DNA of 64,000 nucleotides from Sulfolobaceae archaeon (GTDB lineage Archaea; Thermoproteota; Thermoprotei_A; Sulfolobales; Sulfolobaceae), in contig JAWARQ010000002.1 of assembly GCA_038893355.1 (NCBI GenBank), positions 96,001 to 160,000 of the forward strand, read 5' to 3'. A program made the translations under genes and the position numbers. Each line of letters begins with the position of its first letter. Within the stretch, counting starts at the first letter, position 1. The notes below the pieces were generated by a model. The model had not been told where the DNA came from. It searched no databases and saw nothing but the letters and a program-made list of their open reading frames with translations. This document shows, piece after piece, positions 14,831 through 52,921 of the stretch.

Positions 14831-14856
14831 GTGTACTATTACTACCTTATTATTGA

Positions 14857-14950: not shown

Positions 14951-15019
14951 ACACTAACAGAAATTTTTAATATTTGTTTATGTTAAAATAGTGACTTGGG
15001 GATATGTAGTTCAGTGCGA

Positions 15020-15151: not shown

Positions 15152-15366
15152 TTTAGCTAAAGACATCCTATATAGGAGTTCCATGAGCCATAGTGAGTGA
15201 TTACTAAGTCCATAACTTCAGTCATGAAATATCGAAATGAAACTGCAGGGACAAACGGATACTCTTGATACTAGATATCATAGAGTTAATTAATTTGGAA
15301 ATAACTATAAGATATAATTATATATAGATAGAGATTTCTATTTAATATTAGTTGATAATTAATATT

Positions 15367-33443: not shown

Positions 33444-33447
33444 ACTC

Positions 33448-36140: not shown

Positions 36141-36548
36141 TTAATAGTTTAGTTTTAACAATTCATAATAATTCCTACTATTCATTCCTTTCTCTATTTC
36201 ATACCCTAATTTCATCCATAAGCTAACTCCGCCTAACATGTTAAATACTCTATAGCCTTTCAACAACTCTGCATATGTATTTACTAAATAAGTACTTCTA
36301 TTACCATGCTCACATACAATCACAATTTCCTTATCCTTAACGTTTAACTTTGGAAATAGTACTGGAAATAAATTCATTGGGATGAGCACTGAATTAGGAA
36401 TATGATGATCTTCATATTCCCATGGCTCTCTAATATCTATTATAATAATCTTATTCTTATTATCCTCTGATAACTTTCTTCTAATTACAGAGGGCCATTC
36501 ATGTAGTATATTTGGATAAAAAGGTGATCTATTGCTAGTAATTATCAT
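36141..36548 (-). CDS. Single-domain rhodanese (sulfurtransferase)
   Basis: IDIRE..EY...HIP, active-site loop CEHGNRS, GG..W. Confidence 0.9.
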   Translation of the reverse strand: MIITSNRSPFYPNILHEWPSVIRRKLSEDNKNKIIIIDIREPWEYEDHHIPNSVLIPMNLFPVLFPKLNVKDKEIVIVCEHGNRSTYLVNTYAELLKGYRVFNMLGGVSLWMKLGYEIEKGMNSRNYYELLKLNY

Positions 36549-36653
36549 ATGAAAGTTAGGATTTATTGGCTAGACTATAAGCATGACCCCCACAGATTTA
36601 TGATGAATATTACTCACAAGAATTATTAAAATCTTGAAAGATTTGATTTAAAA

Positions 36654-37571
36654 TTATATACTTAATTTACCTTCATAAATATTCTTTAATCTTTGCCACA
36701 TATTATCTATATATTCCTCTAGCAATTTAACCTCATCTTCAGCTAGTCTTTTAAATCTACCTTGACTCTTTATGAAATCTATAATTGGTCTTCTTGTTCT
36801 TCTATCTAAGCAATGTAAAGATTCTGATGAAATATTAAGTTTGCCATTTTCATACTCAAATAACGGCCAATAACACGTCTGAACGGCTAATTTACCAATT
36901 TCTACAGTTTTTGAAGGTTCAAAAAGCCAGCCGTAAGGGTCTGGTGTAAGTATATGGACATATCTAAAACCTTTTATATTTTTTGCCTTTTTCAGCTTAT
37001 TTATTAAATCGTGAGGATAGCCTATAGAAGCAGTAGCAACATATGGGACTTTGTGGGCCATCATTAAGAATGGGAGATCTTTTTTATTCTCTTTTTTACC
37101 CTCAGGGGTAGTAGTAGTTATTGCGCCAATTGGAGTTGCGCCACTTCTTTGTCCACCAGAATTCATATATGCCTCATTATCTACACAAATGTAAATGAAA
37201 TCCTCATTTCTCTCTGCAGCACCACTTAATGATGCAAAACCAATATCAGCAGTACCACCATCTCCTGCCCATACTACTACTGTAACATCCTTATTCCTTA
37301 ATTTATATGCTCTAGACATCCCTGAAGCAGCAGCAGGTCCTGCAGCAAATGCTATATTAAGTACGGGATAATTAAACGCGTTCTTAGGCCCTAAACCTTG
37401 TATAATAGAAGAACATCCTGCTACAACGATAAGAGCTACATTATCACCTAATGCAAAACCTAACATCCTCATTGCCATATTCTCTGGACATCCAGGGCAT
37501 GCAGAAGTTCCTGATAATAAGGAGTTCTTCTTATTCAATATGTCTCGGAGTCCTAAGCTCAATCTTTTCAC
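36654..37571 (-). CDS. porB: 2-oxoacid:ferredoxin oxidoreductase beta subunit
   Basis: ACPGC, GC, TPP motif GDGG...DNEAYMNSG.QRS. Confidence 0.9.
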   Translation of the reverse strand: MKRLSLGLRDILNKKNSLLSGTSACPGCPENMAMRMLGFALGDNVALIVVAGCSSIIQGLGPKNAFNYPVLNIAFAAGPAAASGMSRAYKLRNKDVTVVVWAGDGGTADIGFASLSGAAERNEDFIYICVDNEAYMNSGGQRSGATPIGAITTTTPEGKKENKKDLPFLMMAHKVPYVATASIGYPHDLINKLKKAKNIKGFRYVHILTPDPYGWLFEPSKTVEIGKLAVQTCYWPLFEYENGKLNISSESLHCLDRRTRRPIIDFIKSQGRFKRLAEDEVKLLEEYIDNMWQRLKNIYEGKLSI

Positions 37572-38745
37572 CTTCTAAAGGATAATACCATTCAACATTG
37601 TTTGCGATTCCCTTTTTAGCTTCCTCTACAAAACTTAATATTATTTTTTTAATATCGTTTTTATTTATTGAAACACCGCCAAGCCCAGTTATAATTCCTT
37701 TAATCTGCTTTACATCCCTTAACGTAGAAGACACTTCAAGATATAAAATTCCACCTCTACTAAAACTTACAGACCTGTCAAGAACTAATATCGCATCTTT
37801 ATCTTCTAATTCCCTTCTAATCTCCTGATAAGCCCAAGGTCTAATATATCTTATTCTATATAATCCGATTTTTAAACCATCTCGCCTTAATTCATCGATA
37901 GCTTCCATTGCATCACCAGCCCATGCACCCATTAAAACTACAGCATACCTTGAATCATCTAATTTATAACTCTGATTAAGAGTTGAGTAACCTCTCGTAT
38001 ATCCGAAGAATTCCTCATACTGCCTTCCTATTTCTGGAATTAATTCCCTAGCATTTATCATCCCAATATCTATGGAATTCCTCATCTTCATATACTCTAA
38101 CGGAGGAAACATATTTCCTAAACCTATTGGAGCTTCAGGATCTAATACATATGGTTGCCTTCGTTCTGGTAAATACTTATCAACTTCTTCTTGTGATGGT
38201 ACATAAACTTTCGTTTTAACATGGGATAGGATAAAACCATCCATACCTACCATCATCGGTAGGAATATATTCTCATTCTCAGAAATTCTAAAAGCCTGAA
38301 GAGTCAAATCAAGTACTTCTTGCGGATCCATAGCAAAAGCCATTATCCAACCACTATCCCTTTCAGTCATAAAATCAGTATGATCGTTCCATATATTCCA
38401 TGGAGCACCTACCGCCCTCGTTCCAACAACCATTACTAGCGGTATTCTACTCCCAGAAACCCACCATATCATTTCATGCATATATAATAAACCTTGTGAA
38501 GCAGTTGCTGTGAAAGCTCTAACACCCGCTACTGCAGCACCATAACATGTTGCCATTGCAGAATGTTCACTTTCAACTCTTATAATTTCAGCATCAAGTT
38601 CGCCCTTAGCCTTCATTTCTGCAAGTTTTTCAATAATAGTAGTTTGTGGTGTAATTGGATAGACTCCAATAACCTTTACCCTAGCAAGCTTTACAGCTAA
38701 TGCTACTGCCTCATTACCAGATATTATTCTATAACTCACTCTCAC
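37531..38745 (-). CDS. porA: 2-oxoacid:ferredoxin oxidoreductase alpha subunit
   Basis: GNEA, YPITPQT, ESEHSA, TASQGL. Confidence 0.92.
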   Translation of the reverse strand: MRVSYRIISGNEAVALAVKLARVKVIGVYPITPQTTIIEKLAEMKAKGELDAEIIRVESEHSAMATCYGAAVAGVRAFTATASQGLLYMHEMIWWVSGSRIPLVMVVGTRAVGAPWNIWNDHTDFMTERDSGWIMAFAMDPQEVLDLTLQAFRISENENIFLPMMVGMDGFILSHVKTKVYVPSQEEVDKYLPERRQPYVLDPEAPIGLGNMFPPLEYMKMRNSIDIGMINARELIPEIGRQYEEFFGYTRGYSTLNQSYKLDDSRYAVVLMGAWAGDAMEAIDELRRDGLKIGLYRIRYIRPWAYQEIRRELEDKDAILVLDRSVSFSRGGILYLEVSSTLRDVKQIKGIITGLGGVSINKNDIKKIILSFVEEAKKGIANNVEWYYPLEGEKIELRTPRHIE

Positions 38746-38992
38746 TCACCATAGAAATTGCTTTAGCAGGGCATACATTAGCACAAACTCCACATCCTTT
38801 ACAATACTCATAATCAATTTCAACTCTGTCATTTCTATCTAAAATTGTAGCTTCAGGGCACCACAAATAACAAGCCTTACAGCTTATACATTTATTATAA
38901 TCTATAACTGGCCTCATAACTCTCCAATTTCCGGTCTTTCCACCAGCACCCTTAGCTGGATAACTTACTGGTAAATATAAGTTAACTGACAA
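38729..38992 (-). CDS. porD: 2-oxoacid:ferredoxin oxidoreductase delta subunit (2x[4Fe-4S])
   Basis: KTG.WR..RP, CISCKAC..WCP, CKGCGVC..VCP. Confidence 0.92.
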   Translation of the reverse strand: MSVNLYLPVSYPAKGAGGKTGNWRVMRPVIDYNKCISCKACYLWCPEATILDRNDRVEIDYEYCKGCGVCANVCPAKAISMVSESEL

Positions 38993-39551
38993 CTAGTTCT
39001 ACCTCCTTAATACTATCATAAGCAATTTCTACTGCCTTAGCATTTAATTCTGCAATTTTCCCTTCAAATTCTTCAAATATTGCTTTCTTAAGTGAGTTTA
39101 AACTTATAATCTTTATAACTTTTATTAGAGCACCTAATATAACAATATTTACCATAGGCCAACCTGATTTAACTAAACCTAATTCCTTAGCTATTTTTGT
39201 AGCATTTATTATATATAATTTGTTTTTAATATTATCTAACATAATATTTGATTTAAAAGAATTTATTATAAACTCAGTAGTCGGCTTAATTCCTCTATAT
39301 ACATTTTGGGAGATATATAATAATGTAGGATCTATAACTACAATATAATCTGGATTTTCAATAGGTGAAGTAATTCTAATAGGTTTGTCAGAAATTCTAC
39401 AATATGCCTCTATTTCTGCACCTCTTCTTTCTGCGCCATAGATAGGAAAGGAAGAAGACCAAAGACCCTCAAAATAAGCTGCTTCTGCTAAAACGTTAGC
39501 TGCAGTAACAACACCTTGACCACCTCTTCCGTGAAATCTTATTTCGAGCAA
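38982..39551 (-). CDS. porG: 2-oxoacid:ferredoxin oxidoreductase gamma subunit
   Basis: EIRFHGRGGQG, YGAERRGA. Confidence 0.92.
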   Translation of the reverse strand: MLEIRFHGRGGQGVVTAANVLAEAAYFEGLWSSSFPIYGAERRGAEIEAYCRISDKPIRITSPIENPDYIVVIDPTLLYISQNVYRGIKPTTEFIINSFKSNIMLDNIKNKLYIINATKIAKELGLVKSGWPMVNIVILGALIKVIKIISLNSLKKAIFEEFEGKIAELNAKAVEIAYDSIKEVELVVS

Positions 39552-39613
39552 TAACTATCACGCTCTATAAAATATGTTGATTTTTAGAGTAATAAAGCTT
39601 GATACAAAAAAGT

Positions 39614-40846
39614 TTAAATGTATGGAAGGGCATAAGTTAAAATCTTTTTGAAGAATATTCTTCTATAATATATTTCAGATATTAAAGATATTAATATTGA
39701 AATTATTGATAAATATGGAACTATTGGTAAAGAAATTAAATTGAAAATTATAGCTGAAATATTAAAATATGTCCTAACTTTAAAGTCATTTCTGTATATT
39801 AAGTACTTTTTACTCTTATAATACGCTGAGAATATTTCTAGAGACAAAAACATGATTGCTAAAATAATTGCTAAGAAGTTCTGATTTAGATAATAGGAAA
39901 GGGGTCCAGAAATAGTAAATATTGAACCTATAAAAGAAATTGGAGTATCAATATTATACCATGAAGGTCTAGTCTTAACTAAGTATATCATTAAACTAGA
40001 TATAAAGCTTAATAGGAGAAAGATCGAGGCTAGTATTAAAGTTGATGGTAGGATCAAGTTTATTAAAAATAGAAGCAACGCTAATGCGCCTGTTGCTACT
40101 TCTCTACTTAACCAAGAGGATTTAAGATTAAAAATTACCCTAAATAACCTTTCCCTTCTAGTTACATGAAAAATTGAAGGAATAAATCCTAAGAATAAAA
40201 ATATTATAATGAAAATATTATAATGAGGTATATTAAATATTAAGAATCCGAGTGAAATTTCTATTAAAATAGTATATAATAATAATCCTATATAATTTCT
40301 CTCTTCTACTTGTTTCAAAGTCTTAAATTGACCCTTAACTAATTCAGATGACTTTACTAATAATCTGGGTTTCGTTATCTCCTTAGGAGCTAGATAATTT
40401 ACATCTACTGCAATGTTCTCTTCTAGCCATCCAAAACTTAGAGCACCAGTCGGACATGCTTCTACACAATATGGTAAACCCTTATTTGACTTAATTCTAT
40501 CATAACAGAAATGACATTTTGTCATTATTCCAACTTCATTAATTGTAGGAGCTTCATAAGGACAAGCCCATTGACAATATCTACAGCCTATGCACTTATT
40601 CGGATTTATCCTTAATATTCCAAATTCTTGATCTAATTCATATGCAGAAGCTGGGCACACTTTCATACATAATGGGTTCTCGCAGTGGTTACATGAAATA
40701 GAAAGTGCTGTCTTATAATTGTCTGTAACCAAAATCGGTAACTTTCTCCAATTTAAATTACCATAAGCTTTATTACAAGCATCTACACATGCGTTGCAGA
40801 CTATGCATTTTTGATGATCAAATATAAATGCAAGTTTTCGACTCAT
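39614..40846 (-). CDS. DmsB-like 4x[4Fe-4S] domain fused to DmsC-like membrane anchor
   Basis: CIVCNAC..AC, CNHC..P.C..VCP, CIGC.YC..ACP, CHFC...CVEACP; then about 8 TM helices with H....R.....NL.SSWLSRE. Confidence 0.88.
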   Translation of the reverse strand: MSRKLAFIFDHQKCIVCNACVDACNKAYGNLNWRKLPILVTDNYKTALSISCNHCENPLCMKVCPASAYELDQEFGILRINPNKCIGCRYCQWACPYEAPTINEVGIMTKCHFCYDRIKSNKGLPYCVEACPTGALSFGWLEENIAVDVNYLAPKEITKPRLLVKSSELVKGQFKTLKQVEERNYIGLLLYTILIEISLGFLIFNIPHYNIFIIIFLFLGFIPSIFHVTRRERLFRVIFNLKSSWLSREVATGALALLLFLINLILPSTLILASIFLLLSFISSLMIYLVKTRPSWYNIDTPISFIGSIFTISGPLSYYLNQNFLAIILAIMFLSLEIFSAYYKSKKYLIYRNDFKVRTYFNISAIIFNLISLPIVPYLSIISILISLISEIYYRRIFFKKILTYALPYI

Positions 40847-40923
40847 ATATACTCCTTCATGAAATCATACTCGTAAAAGTATAATATTTATACATATAAG
40901 GTTCTTATATAATGTTAAAGTAA

Positions 40924-41190
40924 ATGGAGACTGAGTTCTATAGATTTGCTTTAATTAGAAATTATCTAAGTAAAGTTATACAAAGCATTGAAGGTGGAAA
41001 AAGCATAAAAGAATCTGTTATTACTGAATTTGATGATAGTACTAAGTCTAGAATCTGCAAAGAAGATATTAATGAGGAAGTAATTTATAATTTAGCTAAA
41101 GAAGTTTCAGAATTTATATTGGTCAAGAATATTGATGAGAGTACGTTACATGAAATAGCTAAGGAGGTGATTAGATTATGCAGAGAATGA
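40924..41190 (+). CDS. Small hypothetical protein
   Basis: 88-aa ORF overlapping the start of the CitE-family gene. Confidence 0.65.
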   Translation: METEFYRFALIRNYLSKVIQSIEGGKSIKESVITEFDDSTKSRICKEDINEEVIYNLAKEVSEFILVKNIDESTLHEIAKEVIRLCRE

Positions 41191-41999
41191 GAAGGTCACA
41201 ATTGTATGTGCCATCAATAAGTGAAAAAATGATTAGAAAGAGTCTAGAAATACCTGCAGATAGTATAATATTTGACCTAGAAGACTCTGTACCTCCAGAA
41301 GAAAAACAACAGGCAAGGGAAATTTTAGAAAGAATGGTGAAGGAGAATGAATGGAAGGGAAAAGAATTAGCAGTTAGAATAAATCCGCTTTATACTTCTG
41401 AAAGTTTAAAAGATTTATTAACAATAATTAAACTGGAAAAGATAGATTTAATAATTATACCAAAAGCTGAAAATGATCTTTCATTTATTTATAAATTAAC
41501 TGGAAAAAATATACTACCAATTATAGAAACTGCTAAGGGATTAGTTAGAATTGAAGAAATAGTTAGATCAGAAGGAATAGTAGGGATAACTTATGGAATA
41601 GCAGATTATGCACTTTCTGTTGGTGGAGAGGTTAGGAAGTATGAATATAACGAGTATATAAAGACAAAAATAGTTTCAGTTGCAAGGACTTACGATATAG
41701 ATCCAATAGATAAAGTTTATTTCGATTTGAAAAATTTGGAAGGCTTCAAAAATGAATGTATCGAAGCTAAGAAACTAGGATTTGAGGGAAAGCAAGTAAT
41801 TCATCCCTCACAAGTTGAAATAGCAAATCAGATCTTTTCATTATCTGAAGAAGAAATAAAGTGGGCAAAAGAAGTAGTAAGCGCATATGAGAAGGCAATA
41901 CGAGAGGGAAGGGGCGCAATAAGACTTAATGATCAGTTAATTGATGCAGTACATTATAGATTAGCTAAAAGAATTTTAAATAAATATAAGATTAGCTAA
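41178..41999 (+). CDS. CitE/malyl-CoA lyase family CoA-ester lyase
   Basis: RRSQLYVP, DLEDSV, VRIN, IET..G, G..D, GK..IHPSQ. Confidence 0.9.
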   Translation: MQRMRRSQLYVPSISEKMIRKSLEIPADSIIFDLEDSVPPEEKQQAREILERMVKENEWKGKELAVRINPLYTSESLKDLLTIIKLEKIDLIIIPKAENDLSFIYKLTGKNILPIIETAKGLVRIEEIVRSEGIVGITYGIADYALSVGGEVRKYEYNEYIKTKIVSVARTYDIDPIDKVYFDLKNLEGFKNECIEAKKLGFEGKQVIHPSQVEIANQIFSLSEEEIKWAKEVVSAYEKAIREGRGAIRLNDQLIDAVHYRLAKRILNKYKIS

Positions 42000-42019
42000 A
42001 AGAATTTTAAATAAATATA
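41958..42019 (+). repeat. Perfect 31-bp tandem duplication
   Basis: AGATTAGCTAAAAGAATTTTAAATAAATATA at 41958-41988 and 41989-42019. Confidence 0.95.
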
Positions 42020-42020
42020 T

Positions 42021-44312
42021 TTATTTAACTCTTTTTCTCTTAATAATATTAAGAATAAACTCTGGCGTAATAGGTATCTCTATATAATCTAACGTAGTTC
42101 CAATTGCATCCTCAATTGCATTAACAATTGCAGCAGGCGGGACAGTAGCACCACCCTCTGCAACTCCCTTAGTTCCAAGGGGAGTGAAAGGAGATGGGGT
42201 ATAAAGATGATGGAGTTCTATTGAACTAGGAACTTCCATAGTTGACGGTAACCAGTACTCAGAGAACGAGGTCTGTAGAGGATAGCCCTCTTCGTTATAT
42301 TTAACCATTTCAAATAATGAAGCACCTATTCCCATTACAGTTCCTCCTAATAACTGACCATCGACGATTAAAGGATTTATTAAATTACCTGCATCACTAA
42401 CCACAATATACTTTAAAATGCTAATAAATCCAGTTTCTTCATCTATTCTAATTATGACTCCATGGGCATTTACACCATAAGTTGATGAGAAATTTACTCT
42501 TCTCTTTTCATCAGCAACATTAACGTTAGGTGAATTTAGAACTACAGAAGCTTCAATTCCAATTTCATCACCTATTAAATAGGATCTGTTATATATCATA
42601 TTTGCTATCTCTTTAATAGAATAAGATTTATTTCCTACTAAAACCTTACCATCTTCAATCTTAATTTCCGATTTCTCCACATTGAAAAGTTTTGAGGCTA
42701 ATTCTCTAATTCTCTCCTTTAATTTAATAGCAGCAAGATAAACTGCTGAAGCTCCAACTACACTAAACCTACTACCATAAAATCCAGTCCCTGGGGGTCC
42801 TGCAGTATCACCTAATATTACCTTAACATCCTCTAAATCTAAACCTAATACATCTGCTACGATTTGTGAAATAGTTGTTTCATGACCTGTTCCCATACTA
42901 TTTGTGCTTAGATTTACTAAAACCTCTCCACTGCTTTCCATCTTCATATAAACTCCTTCATAATAAGGCGTTCTCGGCTTCTTTACTACTAAGGTCTGAA
43001 ATGCTAACGATGAACCAGGTTCTAATGCAAATGCAATACCAACTCCAATGAGACCTTCCATACTCTTATATTTTTCTATTTCCAGGTAGTTTACTAGCAG
43101 CTCTAGAGCCTTCTTATAATCTCCACTATCATATATCGCACCAGTAATAGTCGTTGCTGGAAAATCAGTAATGAAATTTTCCTTCCTTAATTTAAATCTA
43201 TCATAATTCGTAACTCTTGCTACAGAATCTACAAGATTCTCTAGGACTAAGACCGCAGGAGGAATTCCTAACCCTCTATATGGTCCTGTTGGTGGCTTAT
43301 TAGTTACTACACCTTTTACTTCAAATTTTAGATACTTCATCTTATAAGCTCCAGTTAGATGATAAATTTGCCTAAGTATCGGTAACGGTTGATAAGTATG
43401 TAAATACGCCCCGAAGTCTTCTAATAAGGAAACTTCAATACCTAATAGTTGATTATCCTTATAAAGTATCTTTGCAGTATAATGCCTATCTGGACCATGA
43501 ACTGCAGAAATTATATGTTCACTCCTCGTTTCAATATATTTTACAGTCTTCCCAGTTATAATTGATGCAGCTACTGTCATTACTATTGGCTTTAAAAATA
43601 TTTTACCGCCAAATCCTCCACCAGAATCGGGGACTATTATTCTTATTTTACTCCTTGGAATGTTAAATACTATACTAACTGCAGTTTTGAAAACTTGAGG
43701 GACTTGAGTATTTGCTATTATTGTAAGTTCTCCACTTATTTTATTATATTCAGCAATTACAGCATTCGGCTCTATCGGTGAAGGGAGAATTCTATTATAC
43801 CTAAACTGCTTAGTAATCTCCTTATACTCAAAAGGTTTTTCACCATATATAAATTCGTCCTTATAAATTAAATTAGTACCAAATTCCTGATGAATTACTG
43901 GTGCATTAGGTTCTAAGGACTTAAACGGATCGATTACTGCTTCTAGAGGTTCATATTCAATTTCTATTTCATCAATAGCATCTTGCACAGAATATCTATC
44001 ACGGCCTACAACTATAGCTATAGGTTCTCCATAATAATTTGCAATATTTCTTGGAAGTATGTATTCTTTAGGTGCATTTTCAATAAAAAAGTTTGGTAAT
44101 GGATTGAAGGTCTTTATGTCATCAAAAGTTATAAGAGTTATATTACTTGAGGATGGTTCTTTAGTAATTCTAAATTTAGCGCGAGGATAGTTCGACCTTA
44201 TAACCGCCATATGAAGCATTCCAGATTGTTGAAAGTCATCAACATATTTTCCCCTTCCAGCTAAAAATCTAAGATCCTCTATTCTTTTTATCGGCTTACC
44301 TATATACTTCAC
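42021..44312 (-). CDS. Xanthine-oxidase-family molybdopterin-binding large subunit (CutA/CoxL/HmfA-like)
   Basis: IG....R.ED.RFL.G.G.YVDD, GGGFGGK, PYRGLG active-site loop (not the AYxCSFR of true CO dehydrogenase), KGVAEGG. Confidence 0.9.
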   Translation of the reverse strand: MKYIGKPIKRIEDLRFLAGRGKYVDDFQQSGMLHMAVIRSNYPRAKFRITKEPSSSNITLITFDDIKTFNPLPNFFIENAPKEYILPRNIANYYGEPIAIVVGRDRYSVQDAIDEIEIEYEPLEAVIDPFKSLEPNAPVIHQEFGTNLIYKDEFIYGEKPFEYKEITKQFRYNRILPSPIEPNAVIAEYNKISGELTIIANTQVPQVFKTAVSIVFNIPRSKIRIIVPDSGGGFGGKIFLKPIVMTVAASIITGKTVKYIETRSEHIISAVHGPDRHYTAKILYKDNQLLGIEVSLLEDFGAYLHTYQPLPILRQIYHLTGAYKMKYLKFEVKGVVTNKPPTGPYRGLGIPPAVLVLENLVDSVARVTNYDRFKLRKENFITDFPATTITGAIYDSGDYKKALELLVNYLEIEKYKSMEGLIGVGIAFALEPGSSLAFQTLVVKKPRTPYYEGVYMKMESSGEVLVNLSTNSMGTGHETTISQIVADVLGLDLEDVKVILGDTAGPPGTGFYGSRFSVVGASAVYLAAIKLKERIRELASKLFNVEKSEIKIEDGKVLVGNKSYSIKEIANMIYNRSYLIGDEIGIEASVVLNSPNVNVADEKRRVNFSSTYGVNAHGVIIRIDEETGFISILKYIVVSDAGNLINPLIVDGQLLGGTVMGIGASLFEMVKYNEEGYPLQTSFSEYWLPSTMEVPSSIELHHLYTPSPFTPLGTKGVAEGGATVPPAAIVNAIEDAIGTTLDYIEIPITPEFILNIIKRKRVK

Positions 44313-44703
44313 TCTTTCTCACCACATACCAAGTACCTATTCCCTTGACACTAAGCTTATCATCATCATATCCATTTAATTCTACAAATACAATTCTCTT
44401 ACCTTCTTCTATCACCTTTGCTATTCCAACAAATTTCTGACCCCTTACGGGCTTCATAAAATTTATTTTTACTTCTATGGTATACTGATCTACAACATTA
44501 TCTAGAGTATGTACAGCTATACTTCCAGCATAGTCTAATGTAGAAAAGATTGCCCCACCATGTAAGATATTTCCTTTCCTCTTTAGATTATCTGTAATAG
44601 AAATATAAACTTTAGCATAACCCTTATCTATCTCTAATATATGAAGATCTAAGAATTTAAAGAAGCCCTCCTCTTCTAAATTCATTTCTTTTATTATATT
44701 CAA
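44296..44703 (-). CDS. PaaI-family thioesterase
   Basis: G.LHGG.....D motif, T.E.KINF..P. Confidence 0.88.
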   Translation of the reverse strand: MNIIKEMNLEEEGFFKFLDLHILEIDKGYAKVYISITDNLKRKGNILHGGAIFSTLDYAGSIAVHTLDNVVDQYTIEVKINFMKPVRGQKFVGIAKVIEEGKRIVFVELNGYDDDKLSVKGIGTWYVVRKSEVYR

Positions 44704-45905
44704 ACCTTAACACCAAAATATCTATAATAATACTGTCTAGCTACAGTTATTCTTTGAATATCATTAGTTCCTTCATACGTCTTTAAAATCTGAAGATCCC
44801 TCAACATTCTCTCTAAGCTCGATGAGGTAGAAACGCCATAACCACCTAATGTACCCATTGCCCGTAAAACTATTCTCTCCATTGCCTCTGTTACAAAGAA
44901 CTTTGCCAAAGAAGCTGCAATTATATACTCTTTCATTTTATTATTTTTAAATAAGCTCCCTGCCCAATATGTAAGTAATCTAGAAGCTTCTAAATCTGCA
45001 AGACTCTCAGCTATCTTATTTTGTACAATCTGAAACTCTGCAATTTTCTTTTCAAAAGCTTTTCTATCTAAAGAGTATTTCGACATTAACTCGAAGGCAG
45101 CTTGCCCTATCCCTAAAGCTTGACTTGCTACTATAGTTCTAGTATAGTCAAAAGTTTCTATAGCGTATTTAAATCCCATACCCTCCTCTCCTACTAAATT
45201 CTCTTCAGGAACCTTAACCTCATTTAATTCAATTTCTGCAGTATGTGAAGCTTTTAATCCAGTAGTTTCTATTCTGCTTATCACCCTTAATCCGTCACTT
45301 TCTCTACGATCAATTACGAACATAGAAATCCCTTTCCACCTAGCCTCTGAGGATGGCGGAGAAGTTCTTGCAGTTATTATTAATGTATCCGCTATATCGC
45401 CGTTAGTTATGAATATCTTCCTACCAGTTATGATATAATATCCACCTACTTTTTTAGCTACTGAAGATATCCCTGCAACATCTGAACCTGCCCCCGGCTC
45501 AGTATTTGCAAAGGCCACAATTCTCTTACCACTTGCAACATCTGGAATATATCTTCTCTTTAACTCCTCATTACCCCATTTCATAATAGCATAATTAAAC
45601 ATCCAGTGAATCATTATATAGGTACTAAAAGATGGCCATATTCTTGAAATTTCTTCAATAGCAATTAAGAGAGAAATATAGTCACTACCTTGGCCTCCGA
45701 GTTCTGTAGGTACATCTAATGCTAAAAGACCTAATTCTACAGCCTTCTTCCTAAGTTCTAGTGGTATCTCTCTAGATCTTTCACCTTCTTCTACATACTT
45801 ACTAATCTCCCTTTCTGAAAATTCTCTCATAGCCTTCCTAAAGACTTCGTGATCCGGTTGAATCTCTAGCCTTAAATCCTCTATCGAGGAAAGCGGAAAT
45901 ACCAT
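44700..45905 (-). CDS. Acyl-CoA dehydrogenase (short/branched-chain type)
   Basis: FANTEPGAGSD, G.K.FITNG, GGYG, YEGT.DIQR. Confidence 0.93.
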   Translation of the reverse strand: MVFPLSSIEDLRLEIQPDHEVFRKAMREFSEREISKYVEEGERSREIPLELRKKAVELGLLALDVPTELGGQGSDYISLLIAIEEISRIWPSFSTYIMIHWMFNYAIMKWGNEELKRRYIPDVASGKRIVAFANTEPGAGSDVAGISSVAKKVGGYYIITGRKIFITNGDIADTLIITARTSPPSSEARWKGISMFVIDRRESDGLRVISRIETTGLKASHTAEIELNEVKVPEENLVGEEGMGFKYAIETFDYTRTIVASQALGIGQAAFELMSKYSLDRKAFEKKIAEFQIVQNKIAESLADLEASRLLTYWAGSLFKNNKMKEYIIAASLAKFFVTEAMERIVLRAMGTLGGYGVSTSSSLERMLRDLQILKTYEGTNDIQRITVARQYYYRYFGVKV

Positions 45906-45927
45906 ATTTTCTCACTGATTCTAATTC

Positions 45928-47655
45928 TTACTTAAAGATAAATTCATACTTTGAAATTTCCCCTTTCTTCTTTCTTTCTTCCTCTAATCTTCTTAACTCA
46001 TTTCGCCTTATCTTACCACTTATTGTTTTAGGTAATTCGTTTACAAATTCAATTATTCTAGGAACTTTATAACTCGGTAAAAGTTTCTTTACAAACTCAA
46101 AAATTTCTCTTGCTAACTTTTCACTAGGTTCATAGCCAGGCTTTAATACTACAAAAGCCTTAACAACTTGCCATCTAACAGGGTCTGGACTTCCAATCAC
46201 TGCAGCCTCTGCTACTGCAGGATGCTCTAATAATGCACTTTCTACCTCAAATGGACCTACTCTATAATCGGATGTCTTAATAACATCATCAGCTCTTCCT
46301 ACAAAATACCAGTAACCGTTTTCGTCAAAGTATGCCTTATCTCCAGTGAAGTAGTATCCATTCTTAAATGCTTCCTCATTTCTATGAATATCTGAATAAC
46401 CTCTAAATAGTCCGATTGGTCTCCACTTTGTTAATCGTACTGCAATATGTCCAATCTCATACGGCCTAGTAATTTCGTTACCTTGATCGTCTAATAATAC
46501 TATATCATACATTGGAATTGGCTTTCCAAATGATCCTGGTTTTACTTCCATATTAGGTAAATTACCTATCATTGCAGTTGTTTCAGTTTGACCATAAAAG
46601 TCCCTAATTACATTACCAAACCTATTTTTCCAAACTTTTATTATCTCTGGATTTAATGGTTCACCTGCAGATACAACATTTCTTAATTTATCAAATTTGT
46701 ATTGTTTTAAATCTAAAATTATAAACTGCCTCCATGCTGTAGGTGGTGCACAGAATGAGGTAATATTATATGAATCTGCGACTTCAAGATATTTTGCAGG
46801 ATCTAATTTTCCAGAGTAATTAATCCCGAGAACAGTAGAACCTACAATAAAAGGAGAGAAGAATGAGCTCCATGCAAATTTAGCCCAGCCTGGTGCACTA
46901 AGATTTAAATGTAGATCATCAGGAGAAAGACCTATTATTGTTGCAGTAGATATATGGCCTATTGGATAAGATATCGCAGTATGTATTACCCTTTTCGGCA
47001 TCCCAGTAGTTCCAGAGGTAAAGTAATTTAAACTCTCGTCTTCAGAAGAAGTATCCGCAGGACTTGCATTATTACTCTCATCTTCAACTTTCTCATAACT
47101 TATCCATCCTTCTCTTTTTCCTCTAACTATAATTTTAATAATATCTGAAGATGAAGGCAGGACAGAATCGATGCGTTCAGCACTAGCTTCATCTGCTATT
47201 ATAGCTCTAGGCCTAAGTTCAGAGAATCTATATTTTAATTCATAAGGAGTAAGATTAGTAGCATTAGGAACTCCAACTATTCCGCCCTTTATTATGGCGA
47301 CAAAGGTTATCCATTGTTCAGGTAGAGTGGGCATCATAATATATAATGGATCTCCTTTATTAATATTATATTTTCTAAGAAAATTTAATAATTTATTTGA
47401 TTTTTGAATAATATCAATATAACTATATTTCTCTTCAATATTCTTATCAATATCATACCATATGAGTGCTGTTCGTGAAGGATGTTCCTTAACGTGATAT
47501 TCTTCAAAGAAATCGGATACCCAATTAAATTTCTGTGGAAGTTTTATATTATTAAGTTTCTCAATAAATTTAATTATTTTAAATATTTTTTCTTCTGATT
47601 TTTCATTAATAATCTTTAAATATTCACCTAGAATACTCTTTAAATCATTACTCAT
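45928..47655 (-). CDS. AMP-forming acyl-CoA synthetase (medium-chain/aryl type)
   Basis: Likely start ATG 47655 (MSNDL); YFTSGTTGMPK, SAGEPLN, YGQTET, TGD, PKTISGKIRR. Confidence 0.92.
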   Translation of the reverse strand: MSNDLKSILGEYLKIINEKSEEKIFKIIKFIEKLNNIKLPQKFNWVSDFFEEYHVKEHPSRTALIWYDIDKNIEEKYSYIDIIQKSNKLLNFLRKYNINKGDPLYIMMPTLPEQWITFVAIIKGGIVGVPNATNLTPYELKYRFSELRPRAIIADEASAERIDSVLPSSSDIIKIIVRGKREGWISYEKVEDESNNASPADTSSEDESLNYFTSGTTGMPKRVIHTAISYPIGHISTATIIGLSPDDLHLNLSAPGWAKFAWSSFFSPFIVGSTVLGINYSGKLDPAKYLEVADSYNITSFCAPPTAWRQFIILDLKQYKFDKLRNVVSAGEPLNPEIIKVWKNRFGNVIRDFYGQTETTAMIGNLPNMEVKPGSFGKPIPMYDIVLLDDQGNEITRPYEIGHIAVRLTKWRPIGLFRGYSDIHRNEEAFKNGYYFTGDKAYFDENGYWYFVGRADDVIKTSDYRVGPFEVESALLEHPAVAEAAVIGSPDPVRWQVVKAFVVLKPGYEPSEKLAREIFEFVKKLLPSYKVPRIIEFVNELPKTISGKIRRNELRRLEEERKKKGEISKYEFIFK

Positions 47656-47752
47656 ACATATATATGTGATTACATAATAAATAAATTTTAAAGGATGATA
47701 CTTTAACACTAATACTTAAATCTCTTTTACCTTTACTTATATTGGGTTTCAA

Positions 47753-48481
47753 ATGTTAGTAATAGTAGGATTTAAGATTGTACCAGATGATTCTCTAATA
47801 AAAATAGTTGGGAATGAATTAAAAACTGATGTACCAGTTAAGATAAGTACTTATGATAAAAATGCTATTGAAGAGGCTATTAAAATAAAAGAGGCTACAA
47901 ATGGAAAGGCCATAGGCATCACTGTAGGTATCACTGATCGAAAAAGTATTAGAGAGGCATTAGCAATGGGTCTTGATGAGATTATAGCAATAAATACTCA
48001 ATATGCAGATGTTAAAAACACGGCATTAATAATAGCAGAACATGCAAAGCAATTAAATCCAGACGTTATTTTATTCGGTGAATCAACAACAGATAGTAGT
48101 ACTGGTAGCTTAGGAGGTTATGTAGCAGGAGTTCTAGAATACCCTTATGTTTCATATGTAAGAAAGCTTAAGATTGAGGGTAAAAAGTTAATTTTAGAAA
48201 GAGCATTAACACCAATTTATGAAAAAGTTGAAGTTGAAACCCCTGTAGTAATTTCGGTAACTGGTGAAATAAATGTTCCAAGAATACCTACCGTTAGACA
48301 AATAATGGAAGCATCTAAGAAGCCAGTAAAAGAAATTAAAATAGATAAATTAGATAATTCTGCAAAAATTCACTCAATAAAGCCATATATCGTTACTAGA
48401 AAGAGAATAATAATTGAAAAGCCAATGGACGAGGCTGTAGAAATATTATTAGATTACTTAAAGAAGGAGGGTGTACTATGA
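47753..48481 (+). CDS. fixA: Electron transfer flavoprotein beta subunit
   Basis: K.VPD, D.NA.EEA, ALAMG.D, G....D..TG, N.PR.P. Confidence 0.9.
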   Translation: MLVIVGFKIVPDDSLIKIVGNELKTDVPVKISTYDKNAIEEAIKIKEATNGKAIGITVGITDRKSIREALAMGLDEIIAINTQYADVKNTALIIAEHAKQLNPDVILFGESTTDSSTGSLGGYVAGVLEYPYVSYVRKLKIEGKKLILERALTPIYEKVEVETPVVISVTGEINVPRIPTVRQIMEASKKPVKEIKIDKLDNSAKIHSIKPYIVTRKRIIIEKPMDEAVEILLDYLKKEGVL

Positions 48482-49341
48482 GAGTAGTCGTATATTCAGA
48501 AGACGAGAGTTATTTCTATGTTGCGGCAGGTATAGCTAGGAGTTTAAGTAACTATATTATAGGAGTTTCACTATCTAGTAAATTGAATGTAGTTGATGAG
48601 TTATATGTTGTAAAGAAAATTGATGAAGAATTTCTCTCTAACTATATCGCGTCCCTAAAACCAGATCTTGTGATTACTGGAAATACTAAGAGAGATAGGT
48701 CTATAGCAAGTAGAATAGCAGGATTGCTAAGATCTTCCTTTTCATCTGATATTAATTCAATAAAAGTAATTAACAATAAATTAATAGTATCCAGAATAGC
48801 ATATAGTGGAATGGGTCTTGTTGAATTAGAGCTAGATCTACCCGCAGTGGTTACCATATCTCGGCAAGAAGTTAAAGTAACTGAGGTAAATTCTAAGATA
48901 TCTGAGGTAGAAGTAAGGCCAGGAAGAGTCAAAGTAATAGAAGTTTCGTCCCAAGGAGGATCAATTGAAGATATATCTTCGGCACAAATTATAGTTTCTG
49001 TAGGTAGAGGAATAGGATCTAAAGAAAATATAAAATACGCTGAGGAATTAGCAAAACTTTTAGGAGGTACAGTAGGAGGTAGCAGACCAGTTACAACTGA
49101 ATTAGGCTGGTTACCAGAAAATAAACAGATTGGATTATCTGGAACAAAGGTTAAGCCCAAATTATATATTGCGCTAGGAATATCTGGACAACCACAGCAC
49201 CTAGCTGGAATAAAAGATTCGAAAATAATAGTTGCTGTAAATAAGGATAAGAATGCACCAATAGTAGAAAATGCTGATTATATAATAGTAGGAGATGCAG
49301 TAGAATTTTGTAAAGCAATGATAAAGAGGCTATCTAAATGA
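48478..49341 (+). CDS. fixB: Electron transfer flavoprotein alpha subunit
   Basis: VSVGRG, GGSRP, QIGLSG, GISGQPQH..G, AVNKD.NAPI. Confidence 0.92.
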   Translation: MRVVVYSEDESYFYVAAGIARSLSNYIIGVSLSSKLNVVDELYVVKKIDEEFLSNYIASLKPDLVITGNTKRDRSIASRIAGLLRSSFSSDINSIKVINNKLIVSRIAYSGMGLVELELDLPAVVTISRQEVKVTEVNSKISEVEVRPGRVKVIEVSSQGGSIEDISSAQIIVSVGRGIGSKENIKYAEELAKLLGGTVGGSRPVTTELGWLPENKQIGLSGTKVKPKLYIALGISGQPQHLAGIKDSKIIVAVNKDKNAPIVENADYIIVGDAVEFCKAMIKRLSK

Positions 49342-50567
49342 GTTATGATGCAGATGTTATAATAGTAGGCGGAGGTTTAGGAGGATTATCAGCAGCTATT
49401 TCAGCTGCTAAGAAAGGATTATCCGCAATAGTTTTAGAGAGAGGAGAATATAGTGGGGCAAAAAATGTAAGTGGGGGTAGAATGTATGTACATGCGTTAC
49501 TTAAATTAATACCAGATGCATTAGAGAGGGCACCATTAGAGAGGCCGATAACTAGAGAAACTTTTGAAGTTTATTGTGAAAAGGGGAGGAAAGTTATATT
49601 TAGCTACGAAAACAAAAATAAAAAGGAAAGTTACTCAGTATTAAGGGCAAAATTTGATCAATGGCTTGCAAAGGAAGCAGAGAATCTTGGTGCTTTAATA
49701 TCATACTCAACACAAGTAGTTTATGTAAAGAGAGAGGATAATTTCTTCTTAATATCTACAAATAGAGGAGACCTTAAGTCACCATTAATAATAGATGCTG
49801 GAGGCGTTACTGCACCAGTTTCAAGATCATTAGGTCTTAGAAACTTATCTCCAGAAAATTTTATGATAGGAGTTAAAGAAGTTATTAATATTAAGCCAGA
49901 AATTCCAGAAGATGAAGGAGAAGCTAAAGCGATTCTTGGTTTGTTAGATGGACTAAAAGGTGGAGTATTTTATTATACAAACAAAGATACCATTTCCATA
50001 GGCTATACTGCAAAGGTCGAATCGCTTCAAAAATCAGAAAAACCAGCATATGAAATAATAGAGGATGTAAGAGAAAAGTTAGGATTAAATGGCGAGATTT
50101 TGGAGTATTCAGCACATTTAATACCATATTATGGCTATGAGAAAGCTCCTAGATTATGGGATAAAGGGTTAATGATAGTAGGTGATGCGGCAGGTTTACT
50201 TATTAATGACGGATTCACAATAAGAGGTATGGATCTTGCAATAACTTCTGGAATGGTAGCCGGAGAAGTTGCTGCTGAGTTAAAGAATATTAACGATTAT
50301 ACTAAAACTTATATTTATGAAGAAAGGCTTAAAGAAACTCCAGCATATCAAGATTTTATAAATGCAAAAAATGCATTTAAAGTATTAAATTCAGAAAGAT
50401 TATTTATAAAATATCCTAAAATTTTATGTGACAGTTTAGAAGAATTATTTAGTGTAAGTGGTATAGCACCAAGAAGGAGACCAATTAAAGTATTAATAGA
50501 AAAAATGAAAGAAAATCAAGTGAATTCAAGTGAATTAATAATAGATGCTTGGAGGTTTGTCACATGA
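49338..50567 (+). CDS. fixC: FixC ETF:quinone oxidoreductase-like flavoprotein
   Basis: GGG..G, ERGEY.GAKNVSGG, R.KFD.WL, GDAAG, RGMDLA. Confidence 0.9.
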   Translation: MSYDADVIIVGGGLGGLSAAISAAKKGLSAIVLERGEYSGAKNVSGGRMYVHALLKLIPDALERAPLERPITRETFEVYCEKGRKVIFSYENKNKKESYSVLRAKFDQWLAKEAENLGALISYSTQVVYVKREDNFFLISTNRGDLKSPLIIDAGGVTAPVSRSLGLRNLSPENFMIGVKEVINIKPEIPEDEGEAKAILGLLDGLKGGVFYYTNKDTISIGYTAKVESLQKSEKPAYEIIEDVREKLGLNGEILEYSAHLIPYYGYEKAPRLWDKGLMIVGDAAGLLINDGFTIRGMDLAITSGMVAGEVAAELKNINDYTKTYIYEERLKETPAYQDFINAKNAFKVLNSERLFIKYPKILCDSLEELFSVSGIAPRRRPIKVLIEKMKENQVNSSELIIDAWRFVT

Positions 50568-50836
50568 AAATAGATTTATTAAAGAGGTTAGGTTTAAATA
50601 AGTACACTGTTGATCCAGATCCTCATATTACTGTAAATGATAAAATATGTATAGAATGTAAAGAAAAACCATGTACTAAGGCTTGCCCTGCTGGGACGTA
50701 TGAGGCCTTACCAGATGGAAGAATAATCGTGCATTATGAAAGATGCTTAGAATGTGGAGGTGCATTAGTTATATGTCCATTTAATTCAATACAATTTAGA
50801 TTCCCAAATAATGGAATAAGTTATAGGTATGGATAA
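50564..50836 (+). CDS. fixX: FixX ferredoxin-like protein
   Basis: Likely start ATG 50564; C..C...PC...CPA, CLECG, G..YRYG. Confidence 0.88.
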   Translation: MKIDLLKRLGLNKYTVDPDPHITVNDKICIECKEKPCTKACPAGTYEALPDGRIIVHYERCLECGGALVICPFNSIQFRFPNNGISYRYG

Positions 50837-52112: not shown

Positions 52113-52406
52113 TTAAGTTTTAGTTAATCCCTTACGTTTACATAATTCATTGTAAATCATTTTTAGTGTATACTGCTTACTCTTAATTTTTTTAACTACA
52201 ATAAGTATAGAGTATTGTTTGTCTGCTGGATGATATTTATTATTTATAATAATTGGATCTAATCCTAAAATCTTCGAAACTTCAATAATATCATTTACTG
52301 ATATCTTCTGAATTAACTTAAACCTCCTACCCTTTCTTCTACTCTCGCCTAAAAAATATACAGGCCATATTACTACCCTTTCACCTTCAAACTCCCTAAG
52401 ACTCAT
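52113..52406 (-). CDS. srp19: Signal recognition particle protein Srp19
   Basis: VIWP.YF...SRRKGRR, K.HP, K...LK.I; follows rps8e. Confidence 0.88.
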   Translation of the reverse strand: MSLREFEGERVVIWPVYFLGESRRKGRRFKLIQKISVNDIIEVSKILGLDPIIINNKYHPADKQYSILIVVKKIKSKQYTLKMIYNELCKRKGLTKT

Positions 52407-52792: not shown

Positions 52793-52921
52793 TTCGAGTA
52801 CTAACTTTAGTCATGGAATAAATAAAATTGAGGGTTATGATAGTTAAGAGCTAAAATTACGATTAATTTTTAGTTAATATCTTTTTTATTAATATTTAGT
52901 TAAATAATATATAAACTAAGT

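Follow-up and report, generated by a model that had tools for sequence, protein, structure and literature searches.

A Por-type 2-oxoacid oxidoreductase paired with a DmsB-DmsC membrane fusion in the Sulfolobaceae: a candidate link between amino acid breakdown and the respiratory quinone pool

Members of the Sulfolobales are aerobes, yet they oxidize pyruvate and other 2-oxoacids with ferredoxin-dependent enzymes. How the electrons from these reactions reach the aerobic respiratory chain is the question raised by the locus described here. In the relevant passage of a review on Sulfolobus iron–sulfur (Fe-S) proteins, the way in which reduced ferredoxin is re-oxidized is described as remaining to be established (PMC2946596). 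The locus was found in a stretch of 64,000 nucleotides (hereafter, the window) from a Sulfolobaceae archaeon, corresponding to positions 96001-160000 of contig C2 (JAWARQ010000002.1) of assembly GCA_038893355.1, which comprises 1.40 Mb in 17 contigs, is 83.8% complete, and has approximately 32% G+C. In the window, the genes for a four-subunit 2-oxoacid oxidoreductase of the Por type, porG, porD, porA, and porB, follow a gene for a single protein with DmsB-like and DmsC-like domains (hereafter, the DmsBC fusion, encoded by dmsBC). Around this pair are genes for an acyl-CoA dehydrogenase (ACAD), for the large subunit of a xanthine-oxidase-family molybdenum hydroxylase (MoL), and for FixABCX. In the initial annotation, which was made from the sequence alone, the cluster was described as a candidate for a new CoA-dependent pathway similar to the bacterial alpha-oxidation of phenylacetate by the Pad enzymes, with the DmsBC fusion and MoL as partners. 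All genes listed there were recovered by open reading frame (ORF), Pfam, and NCBIfam analyses with the same order and strands (Table 1). However, the distribution of these genes among relatives tied the DmsBC fusion to Por, not to MoL.

The window proteins were assigned using Pfam and NCBIfam profiles. The family comparison covered the genome of the window and 46 other Sulfolobaceae genomes (47 in total), and the order-level comparison covered 107 genomes from 12 other families of the order, in which DmsBC was searched for at E<=1e-40. Cluster neighbourhoods were mapped in 22 fetched Sulfolobaceae loci, and 13 loci with MoL orthologues were fetched. Where they have to be told apart, genomes, contigs, loci, and genera are denoted by G, C, L, and g numbers, respectively, with G000 being the genome of the window.

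The DmsBC fusion was detected in 9 of 13 sampled genomes of the family and, in the full sample, in 33 of 47, the genome of the window counted, and it was absent from the 107 genomes of the other families at the threshold given. An orthologue of the window's PorA, with 61-70% identity, was present in the same 33 genomes and additionally in G149, where it was located approximately 1.5 kb from a contig end and no dmsBC was detected. The remaining 13 genomes had neither gene. In 32 of the 33 genomes, porA was encoded on the strand of dmsBC and followed it at a distance of 0.8-1.1 kb, and the order dmsBC-porG-porD-porA-porB was kept in all 16 loci that were fetched and mapped for it. Other four-subunit PorA paralogues exist in the same genomes (33-49% identity), but they were located elsewhere, and only this paralogue was linked to dmsBC. 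Since the DmsBC proteins of relatives were 45-55% identical and the neighbouring genes had been rearranged repeatedly, the surroundings have been shuffled around a dmsBC-por pair that stayed together.

The Por subunits themselves showed the features of a four-subunit Por/Vor enzyme, as gamma, delta, alpha, and beta subunits were all recognized. Eight cysteines were invariant in PorD, and the GDGG...N motif for thiamine pyrophosphate (TPP) was invariant in PorB together with its conserved cysteines. The best solved relative of PorA was the alpha subunit of a pyruvate:ferredoxin oxidoreductase (9bt4_B), although PorA scored below the cut-off of the PorA_Arch model. As PorB passed the PorB and Vor-beta models alike, the 2-oxoacid substrate was not fixed by these assignments.

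The DmsBC fusion consists of a four-cluster ferredoxin domain (residues ~1-180) and an eight-helix membrane domain of the NrfD/DmsC type. Its ferredoxin domain matched PF13247 with 75.9 bits, while the score against TIGR02951 was 116.8, under the equivalog cut-off of 214; thus, the fusion is not a DmsB orthologue. Across 37 fusion sequences, 16 cysteines were invariant (C14/17/20/24, C52/55/60/64, C85/88/91/95, and C111/114/127/131), forming four CxxCxxCxxxC(P) groups of the type that binds [4Fe-4S] clusters. The membrane domain matched PF04976 with 34.7 bits (cut-off 22.3), and alignment with E. coli DmsC using hhalign gave a probability of 97.9%. In this alignment, the invariant H227 and E249 of the fusion corresponded to H65 and E87 of DmsC, which are given in the pertinent section of a survey of NrfD-type complexes as quinone-site residues whose replacement blocks quinol oxidation (PMC8076601). 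The AlphaFold2 model obtained from a 37-row alignment (pLDDT 93.6, pTM 0.90) contained an Fe-S domain at its N terminus and, in addition, a set of eight long helices. Foldseek matched the model to PsrB (2vpw_B, E 2.5e-9), PsrC (2vpw_C, TM 0.61), and ActC of alternative complex III. Moreover, the first cysteine group stands right at the start of the protein, which has neither a signal peptide nor a Tat leader; its Fe-S domain is therefore expected on the cytoplasmic side of the membrane, on which Por operates. Taken together, the kept residues and the confidently predicted fold suggest that the fusion is an intact electron-transfer and quinone module.

In these features the fusion resembles DmsBC of E. 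coli and PsrBC of T. thermophilus (2vpw), which also combine a four-cluster ferredoxin with an eight-helix, haem-free quinone anchor, and the DmsC residues H65 and E87 are kept. Unlike those proteins, it is one polypeptide with no export signal, no catalytic subunit of the bis(pyranopterin guanine dinucleotide) (bis-PGD) type is encoded nearby, and Por is its constant neighbour. The initial annotation was right in that no catalytic subunit accompanies the fusion in the window; the PF00384 matches of the genome were found at C2:197951 and on C11 only. Likewise, an arrangement resembling DmsABC and related complex iron-sulfur molybdoenzymes was not found in relatives, as the neighbours were por genes in 16 of 16 loci.

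The first of these PF00384 matches belonged to a protein of ~600 aa located outside the window (G000:C2:197774-199573; L127:5775-7577), which matched this profile only (39 bits). It had no match to the Fe4S4 or dinucleotide-binding domains and no Fe-S or anchor genes as neighbours. No other bis-PGD-like gene was shared by all 5 genomes tested, and this one was then found in 47 of 47 family genomes with 52-68% identity. As a hidden partner of the DmsBC fusion, it was ruled out by this distribution, which includes the 14 genomes with no dmsBC. No alternative partner with a distribution matching that of DmsBC was found among the bis-PGD genes of the 5 genomes, the shared one of which was traced in all 47.

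Distant DmsB-DmsC fusions with 28-37% identity were found in bacterial metagenome-assembled genomes labelled Bacteroidales, Gemmatimonadota, Acidobacteriota, and other phyla. They keep the fused architecture and the same invariant positions (the cysteines, H, SWLSRE, Y, E, and R). In the bacterial scan, 601 stretches matched, and the best 80 loci (L046-L125) were kept; among these best 80 of 601, no Por, xanthine-oxidase-family large subunit, ACAD, or electron-transfer flavoprotein (ETF) gene was found within the fetched flanks (0 of 80). Hand-picked neighbours were scanned with Pfam at 25 of the 80 loci, and at 22 of them a leaderless bis-PGD catalytic gene, starting at its Fe4S4 domain, adjoined the fusion. 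At the other three (L070, L071, and L124), at which only part of the ORFs was scanned, other neighbours were found. Thus, a molybdoenzyme is the ordinary partner of DmsBC fusions, and in the Sulfolobaceae, as judged from gene neighbourhoods, Por has taken its place beside the fusion. The bacterial bis-PGD partners were ~690 aa long and were often encoded near genes for sulfite reductase, a CysJ-like flavoprotein, siroheme methylase, and pyridoxal phosphate enzymes of Cys/Met metabolism. Such a gene content would be compatible with an SoeABC-like sulfite:quinone enzyme that faces the cytoplasm and in which SoeB and SoeC are fused. At L065 and L077, the catalytic and DmsBC frames seemed to be continuous (ORFs of 1154 and 1147 aa).

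The link of the dmsBC-por pair to the remaining genes of the cluster was looser. Orthologues of ACAD were present in 33 of 47 genomes, of which 31 also had dmsBC and 2 had ACAD only, while 2 genomes had dmsBC only and 12 had neither. In 18 genomes, which represent 6 genera, no more than 5 kb separated the ACAD gene from dmsBC. The genes fixAB adjoined ACAD in L011, L015, L032-L034, L036, and L044, and the complete array fixA-fixB-ACAD-MoL-dmsBC-porGDAB was contiguous in 6 of the 13 fetched MoL loci. Since the array recurs in relatives, the clustering is not an accident of this genome. The expectation that the cluster is conserved was therefore borne out for MoL, ACAD, DmsBC, PorGDAB, and FixAB. 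It did not hold for the CoA ligase, CitE, the rhodanese, and the liv transporter: ligase orthologues were found in 14 of 46 genomes, none near ACAD or dmsBC; no liv or rhodanese match was found near the cluster in the 22 fetched loci; and citE was adjacent in 3 of these 22 only (L015, L036, and L039, with 60-62% identity). Accordingly, the first and last steps of the pathway proposed in the initial annotation appear to be lineage-specific. A PaaI-like gene (39% identity) was located between ACAD and dmsBC at L015 only, among the other fetched loci.

MoL was most closely associated with ACAD. Its orthologues (58-68% identity; next-best paralogues <=39%) were found in 19 of 46 genomes, with a fragment in one more, and in 18 of the 19 the ACAD orthologue ended within ~25 nt upstream of MoL on the same strand; in the nineteenth, G149, MoL was on a short contig. 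In contrast, the gap from MoL to dmsBC is approximately 300 bp and usually contains a small divergent ORF. DmsBC and Por were present in 13 genomes with no MoL orthologue, and MoL was present with no dmsBC detected in G133 and G149. The suggestion that DmsBC is the partner of the Mo subunit was not sustained by these counts, as DmsBC occurred together with Por in 33 of 33 genomes. In G139 (C1:987540-989804), the MoL orthologue contained an in-frame TAG, and in G144 (C28:3864-4739), a fragment contained TGA; these may be cases of an accessory Mo gene decaying while dmsBC-por is intact.

The closest NCBIfam model of MoL was the glyceraldehyde dehydrogenase alpha subunit (514 bits, cut-off 790). 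Its nearest solved relatives were CoxL, the large subunit of glyceraldehyde oxidoreductase 2 (GAOR2) of S. tokodaii (4zoh_A, second-best), and quinoline oxidoreductase (Qor). E719 aligned with the glutamate of the KGVGES/KGMGES motif of carbon monoxide dehydrogenase (CODH) and Qor, and Q203 aligned with the conserved glutamine. MoL was ruled out as an aerobic CO dehydrogenase (CoxL form I), with a loop reading TGPYRGLG and a gap at the Cys-Ser of AYRCSFR. Since the catalytic Glu and Gln are kept and the copper-binding loop of CODH is absent, MoL has the appearance of a functional enzyme, either a hydroxylase or an aldehyde oxidoreductase.

The genome encodes four xanthine-oxidase-family large subunits (on C2, C10, and C12) but one FAD and one 2Fe-2S subunit, both on C4. 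This sole CutB/CutC pair (C4:145321-147651; L128:4321-6651) is accompanied by a gene for a MocA-like cytidylyltransferase and by CoxG, and no large subunit is adjacent. Therefore, while MoL has no local FAD or 2Fe-2S partner, as had been noted, the idea that it is an orphan was overturned, because the medium (M) and small (S) subunits are available to it elsewhere in the genome. For the Mo half of the initial proposal, canonical partners encoded elsewhere had been named in advance as a result that would refute it. In the part of the source concerned, scattered large (L) subunit genes of the S. tokodaii GAORs are described as sharing one M/S pair (PMC4726530). By the same token, the lone state of MoL is ordinary for the family, and DmsBC is unneeded to explain it; by analogy with GAOR (PMC4726530), MoL most likely assembles with the C4 CutB/CutC pair. 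Like MoL, the L subunits of GAOR1-3 (4zoh) are encoded away from the shared M/S pair. MoL differs in forming a distinct orthologous group, of which G090 has only paralogues with <=36% identity, and in being coupled to ACAD, a coupling not reported for the GAORs in the pertinent sections of PMC4726530. Another xanthine-oxidase-family large subunit (740-aa frame) was located just upstream of the window (G000:C2:92412-95394) beside an IOR-like gene, the 609-aa frame of which matched POR_N weakly; this is a second pairing of a Mo-hydroxylase with an oxoacid oxidoreductase in this genome.

With respect to the metabolic context, a class-III aminotransferase gene of the PRK05769 family preceded the ACAD-MoL pair in genus g3, where the order aminotransferase-ACAD-MoL-prpD-prpB-CBS-prpC was found in 4 of 4 loci (L035, L037, L038, and L043). 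At the level of gene order, the ACAD-Mo pair is thereby connected with the methylcitrate cycle. In L039, the same aminotransferase gene preceded ACAD-MoL-dmsBC-por, and in L126, an Opp/Dpp-type peptide transporter was located beside the ACAD orthologue. The best model of the window's CoA ligase was the branched-chain acid ligase MbcS, although the score was under its cut-off. The aminotransferase, prp, Opp/Dpp, liv, and ligase-model contexts point to the catabolism of short or branched acyl-CoAs derived from amino acids and ending in propionyl-CoA.

Given these data, the reading that we favour, with moderate confidence, is that electrons pass from Por through DmsBC to caldariellaquinone, that Por feeds the ACAD/ETF step of amino-acid-derived acyl-CoA catabolism, and that the Mo enzyme is accessory. 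The unit would be specific to the Sulfolobaceae and would consist of a four-subunit PorGDAB that has gained its own electron-exit module in the form of the DmsB-DmsC fusion. At the TPP site, a 2-oxoacid would be decarboxylated oxidatively to the acyl-CoA. The two electrons would pass via the [4Fe-4S] clusters of PorB and PorD into the four clusters of the cytoplasm-facing DmsB-like domain, and caldariellaquinone would be reduced at the DmsC-type site (H227/E249). PorGDAB-DmsBC would thus be a membrane-bound 2-oxoacid:quinone oxidoreductase independent of soluble ferredoxin. The acyl-CoA product would then be dehydrogenated by the co-clustered ACAD, the electrons of which would enter the same quinone pool by way of FixAB (an ETF) and FixCX. 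The substrates would probably be short or branched 2-oxoacids and acyl-CoAs from amino acids. MoL, seemingly coupled to ACAD in translation, would belong to an accessory L-M-S hydroxylase with CutB/CutC (and CoxG), probably oxidizing an aldehyde or semialdehyde intermediate.

A more specific form of this proposal is put forward tentatively, as possible but not probable. In it, PorGDAB and DmsBC would be parts of one membrane-bound 2-oxoacid:caldariellaquinone oxidoreductase complex, in which, for the first time, a TPP enzyme, and not a molybdo-, haem-, or hydrogenase partner, would have recruited an anchor of the NrfD/DmsC type. As subunits of the NrfD type can be electrogenic, part of the drop of ~0.6 V might be conserved. 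A bolder addition would be that the ACAD-coupled Mo hydroxylase uses as its substrate the CoA thioester made by ACAD, in place of a free aldehyde.

A precedent for contact between the two kinds of domain is found in the Pad system, in the phenylglyoxylate:NAD+ oxidoreductase PadEFGHI, in which a gamma-delta-alpha-beta Por-type core also has a DmsB-like polyferredoxin domain, fused to the beta subunit in PadI. In the NCBIfam profile of PadI (443 positions), positions 7-135 match the DmsB domain and positions 149-437 match PorB, so that a natural fusion of a DmsB-like domain with Por beta exists. However, the window's Por subunits are not orthologues of PadEFGI, as their scores fell far under the cut-offs of the PadEFGHI models (NF045762-NF045766): 129.3 against 300 for PorG, 76 against 150 for PorD, 282 against 700 for PorA, and 213.7 against 700 for PorB. 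The claim of Pad-like Por subunits was thus not upheld, the subunits being at or near the Por/Vor models. The two systems also differ in the electron outlet, since the extra DmsB domain in the window continues into a membrane quinone anchor, not toward PadH, which is an NAD-reducing flavoprotein. Extra Fe-S proteins are likewise found with Por in methanogens, where the polyferredoxins PorE and PorF are soluble, have no membrane anchor, are thought to link Por to membrane energy converters, and serve anabolic pyruvate synthesis. The window's fusion, likened to them by description only, differs by its membrane anchor. Consistent with the initial view that the arrangement is undescribed, no description of a Por-linked DmsC/NrfD anchor was found in the literature searched by title and abstract. 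In the sections concerned of a 2021 survey of NrfD-type complexes, many complex types are named but no 2-oxoacid oxidoreductase (PMC8076601). A literature search by locus tag for SSO1206-1209 gave no function, SSO1209 (cutA-1) being listed as a detected protein and one further match being a false one to Sso12083, and in a nutrient-limitation paper (PMC6335949), POR appeared in the abbreviation list only.

Several observations weigh against the proposed route. The compared genomes are kin and are therefore not independent observations. In G128, por was divergent from dmsBC, which was co-directional and located after ACAD. The ACAD orthologue was far from dmsBC-por in genera g4, g9, and g58, and in genus g3 it was 25-29 kb away, or 180 kb in G136. 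The spacer between dmsBC and porG (window positions 39552-39613) had a conserved layout of 62-73 bp in 13 loci, the window included, with a T-run right after the dmsBC stop codon, a TATA-like TTTTTAA/TTTATTA, and GGTG situated 7-9 nt upstream of the start codon of porG, which was mostly TTG. Because of these elements, dmsBC and porGDAB may be separate transcripts, and the spacer suggests partial termination combined with an internal promoter or a processing site. With PorB over the PorB equivalog cut-off, pyruvate is a possible substrate. Passing electrons of approximately -500 mV straight to a high-potential quinone would also be wasteful unless the NrfD-type domain conserves energy, which is speculative. 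Finally, the role assigned to the Mo enzyme derives from family resemblance and neighbouring genes. When PorA, PorB, PorD, and the DmsB domain (residues 1-182) were predicted as a complex, the score lacked specificity when judged by the controls built into the tool and thus counts neither for nor against binding. In the case of L044, at least 98% of the sampled words of positions 4300-14100 were present in 19 RNA-library runs from 11 studies, and in 2 of 4 runs examined, a single Logan contig spanned fixA to porB. As such contigs reached up to 48 kb, neither they nor the gaps in their cover, located between MoL and dmsBC in run X9 and just upstream of fixA in run X10, are informative on transcription or operons.

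Instead of binding Por, the DmsBC fusion could be a free-standing ferredoxin:quinone oxidoreductase that re-oxidizes the ferredoxin reduced by Por and possibly also by the two-subunit 2-oxoacid:ferredoxin oxidoreductases, of which the genome of the window has two. The genes would then be co-inherited for shared electron flow. Such an enzyme would agree with the free docking face for a catalytic subunit on the DmsB-type domain, with the elements of the dmsBC-porG spacer that permit separate expression, and with the statement, in the review passage, that ferredoxin re-oxidation in these aerobes is still to be established (PMC2946596). However, the fusion occurs strictly one to one with a single Por paralogue (33 of 33), a closer match than a general ferredoxin oxidase would be expected to show; ferredoxin must still be re-oxidized in the 13 family genomes with no DmsBC; and the PadI-type fusion speaks for direct docking of such a domain on PorB. 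This alternative was accordingly considered unlikely.

It could also be argued that the cluster is no functional unit and that a housekeeping pyruvate Por, a fatty-acid ACAD, and a DmsBC protein anchoring some unlinked enzyme only share a synteny inherited within one family. All comparisons of the cluster were made inside this family, so the conservation could be descent; in several genera, ACAD is not linked to por, and the PorB score is that of the PorB equivalog. However, the genes for the ligase, CitE, liv, rhodanese, MoL, and ACAD vary from one locus to the next, while dmsBC and por stayed adjacent and were gained or lost together (33 genomes with both and 13 with neither), and no other partner with a matching distribution was found. 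An explanation by mere synteny is therefore improbable.

A third possibility concerns confurcation, in which Por would supply both the acyl-CoA and low-potential electrons to a bifurcating-type ACAD-FixAB complex in which acyl-CoA and reduced ferredoxin are oxidized together, yielding two NADH, with DmsBC and FixCX as alternative quinone outlets. The window's FixABCX corresponds to FixABCX/EtfABCX of T. maritima (7koe) in its four products and their order, and differs in being clustered with ACAD and Por. Among solved structures, FixB and FixC are closest to ETF systems that bifurcate or confurcate (5ol2, 6fah, 7qh2, and 7koe), with 7koe_C of T. maritima as the best for FixC. In addition, a Sulfolobus ETF is described as being of the bifurcating type in the passage concerned of PMC12042025, fixAB-ACAD is contiguous with dmsBC-por in many genomes, and the stoichiometry would match, with one acyl-CoA and two low-potential electrons per turnover. 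On the other hand, the window's FixA is only 36% identical to the characterized fused ETF and is an orthologue (58-59% identity) of a separate heterodimeric FixA of the same genomes, and DmsBC, the most tightly linked gene, would have no necessary role. The chance that confurcation accounts for the cluster thus appears slim.

The Pad-like route of the initial annotation, in which an acid is converted to its acyl-CoA, oxidized at C2 by MoL with DmsBC, hydrolyzed by the PaaI-like thioesterase, and passed to Por to yield the (n-1) acyl-CoA, drew on the Pad combination of a CoA ligase, a membrane Mo enzyme, and a gamma-delta-alpha-beta oxidoreductase. It is in line with the recurrent clustering of the core genes, the place of the Mo gene immediately upstream of dmsBC whenever it is present in ACAD-MoL-dmsBC-por loci, the operon-like overlap from the ligase through ACAD and PaaI to MoL in the window, where the thioesterase ORF shares 4 nt with ACAD and 17 nt with MoL, and the use of CoA thioesters by some xanthine-oxidase-family enzymes, the alpha subunit of 4-hydroxybenzoyl-CoA reductase being a detectable relative of MoL. 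PadB is a bis-PGD enzyme of the DMSO reductase family, whereas the Mo gene of the window is of the xanthine oxidase family. Bacterial DmsBC fusions likewise pair with bis-PGD enzymes, and we know of no xanthine-oxidase-family enzyme that uses a DmsB/DmsC module. Considering also the independent occurrence of MoL and DmsBC and the ~300 bp between them, the M/S partners and CoxG available to MoL, the ligase not conserved in the cluster, the thioesterase adjacent in one other locus (L015), the Por scores far under the Pad cut-offs, and the lack of any result favouring acid to acyl-CoA to 2-oxoacid over the ordinary order of 2-oxoacid to acyl-CoA to enoyl-CoA, this route is the least probable of those considered.

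Table 1. Features of the locus and its flanks, with coordinates given as positions in the window
Feature	Position	Strand	Basis or remark
GAPN	29235-30767	+	814.7 bits (equivalog cut-off 780)
LivK/G/F/H/M-type ABC transporter	30773-35592	-	Downstream of the cluster
Rhodanese, single-domain	36141-36548	-	Pfam; located after porB
PorB	36654-37571	-	PorB equivalog 468.2 bits (cut-off 405); Vor-beta subfamily 418.4 (cut-off 405)
PorA	37531-38745	-	410 bits, under PorA_Arch cut-off of 550
PorD	38729-38992	-	TIGR02179, 111.2 bits (cut-off 60)
PorG	38982-39551	-	TIGR02175, 224.3 bits (cut-off 81)
DmsB-DmsC fusion, 410 aa	39614-40846	-	PF13247 at residues 49-139; PF04976 at residues 210-320
Helical ORF of 88 aa, divergent from dmsBC	40924-41190	+	No Pfam or NCBIfam family match
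CitE/HpcH-family acyl-CoA lyase (citramalyl/malyl-CoA lyase-like)	41178-41999	+	Pfam, NCBIfam
MoL, xanthine-oxidase-family large (Mo-pterin) subunit, hydroxylase/aldehyde-oxidoreductase type	42021-44312	-	PF02738, PF20256, PF01315
4HBT/PaaI-like hotdog thioesterase	44296-44703	-	Pfam, NCBIfam
Acyl-CoA dehydrogenase, short/branched-chain type	44700-45905	-	Pfam, NCBIfam
AMP-forming acyl-CoA synthetase (CoA ligase)	45928-47709	-	Best model MbcS, 464 bits (cut-off 850)
fixA, fixB, fixC, fixX (ETF beta, ETF alpha, ETF:quinone oxidoreductase-like flavoprotein, ferredoxin-like)	47753-50836	+	Pfam, NCBIfam

As for the other genes at the locus (Table 1), the small helical ORF divergent from dmsBC had weak homologues of 82-88 aa (31-40% identity) in the same position in L017, L018, L032, L033, and L039, and a further copy was located at L044:8599-8847. 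Nothing usable came from an atlas search with the 88-aa ORF, whose product could serve dmsBC-por specifically, as a regulator or an assembly factor. On the other side of the cluster, fixA is divergent from the CoA ligase gene, with 43 bp between them. In L044, the position of fixCX in the window was occupied by a gene divergent from fixA (14028-15911, +), encoding a 627-aa protein with a C-terminal 4Fe-4S dicluster domain only and no NCBIfam match at E<=1e-20. The aldehyde dehydrogenase gene beside the liv transporter was considered as a methylmalonate-semialdehyde dehydrogenase and ruled out, because its product passed the GAPN equivalog cut-off and is unrelated. Together with the genes at 52113-56691 (-), namely those for SRP19, ribosomal protein S8e, cis-prenyltransferase, lysK (M20), lysJ (class-III aminotransferase), and lysX (RimK-type), GAPN forms a housekeeping context.

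The locus described here is a case of known modules in a new combination, Por with a quinone-binding Fe-S membrane anchor. A Por paralogue tied to such a membrane protein offers a specific candidate route by which electrons could enter the respiratory chain directly, and since tractable relatives carry the same dmsBC-por pair, one such genome being G045, with dmsBC at C1:2091714-2092898 and porGDAB downstream, this route is genetically testable. The partner range of NrfD/DmsC-type anchors would be widened by Por. From the pairing of ACAD with a Mo-hydroxylase, and from its place beside methylcitrate-cycle genes and a class-III aminotransferase, an uncharacterized step of archaeal amino acid or propionyl-CoA metabolism is suggested. 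If PorGDAB and DmsBC do form the single complex put forward tentatively above, this would answer, for PorGDAB, how low-potential electrons from 2-oxoacids reach the aerobic chain of the Sulfolobales, and the cluster suggests a direct wire from amino acid breakdown to the respiratory quinone pool in the heat- and acid-loving Sulfolobaceae.

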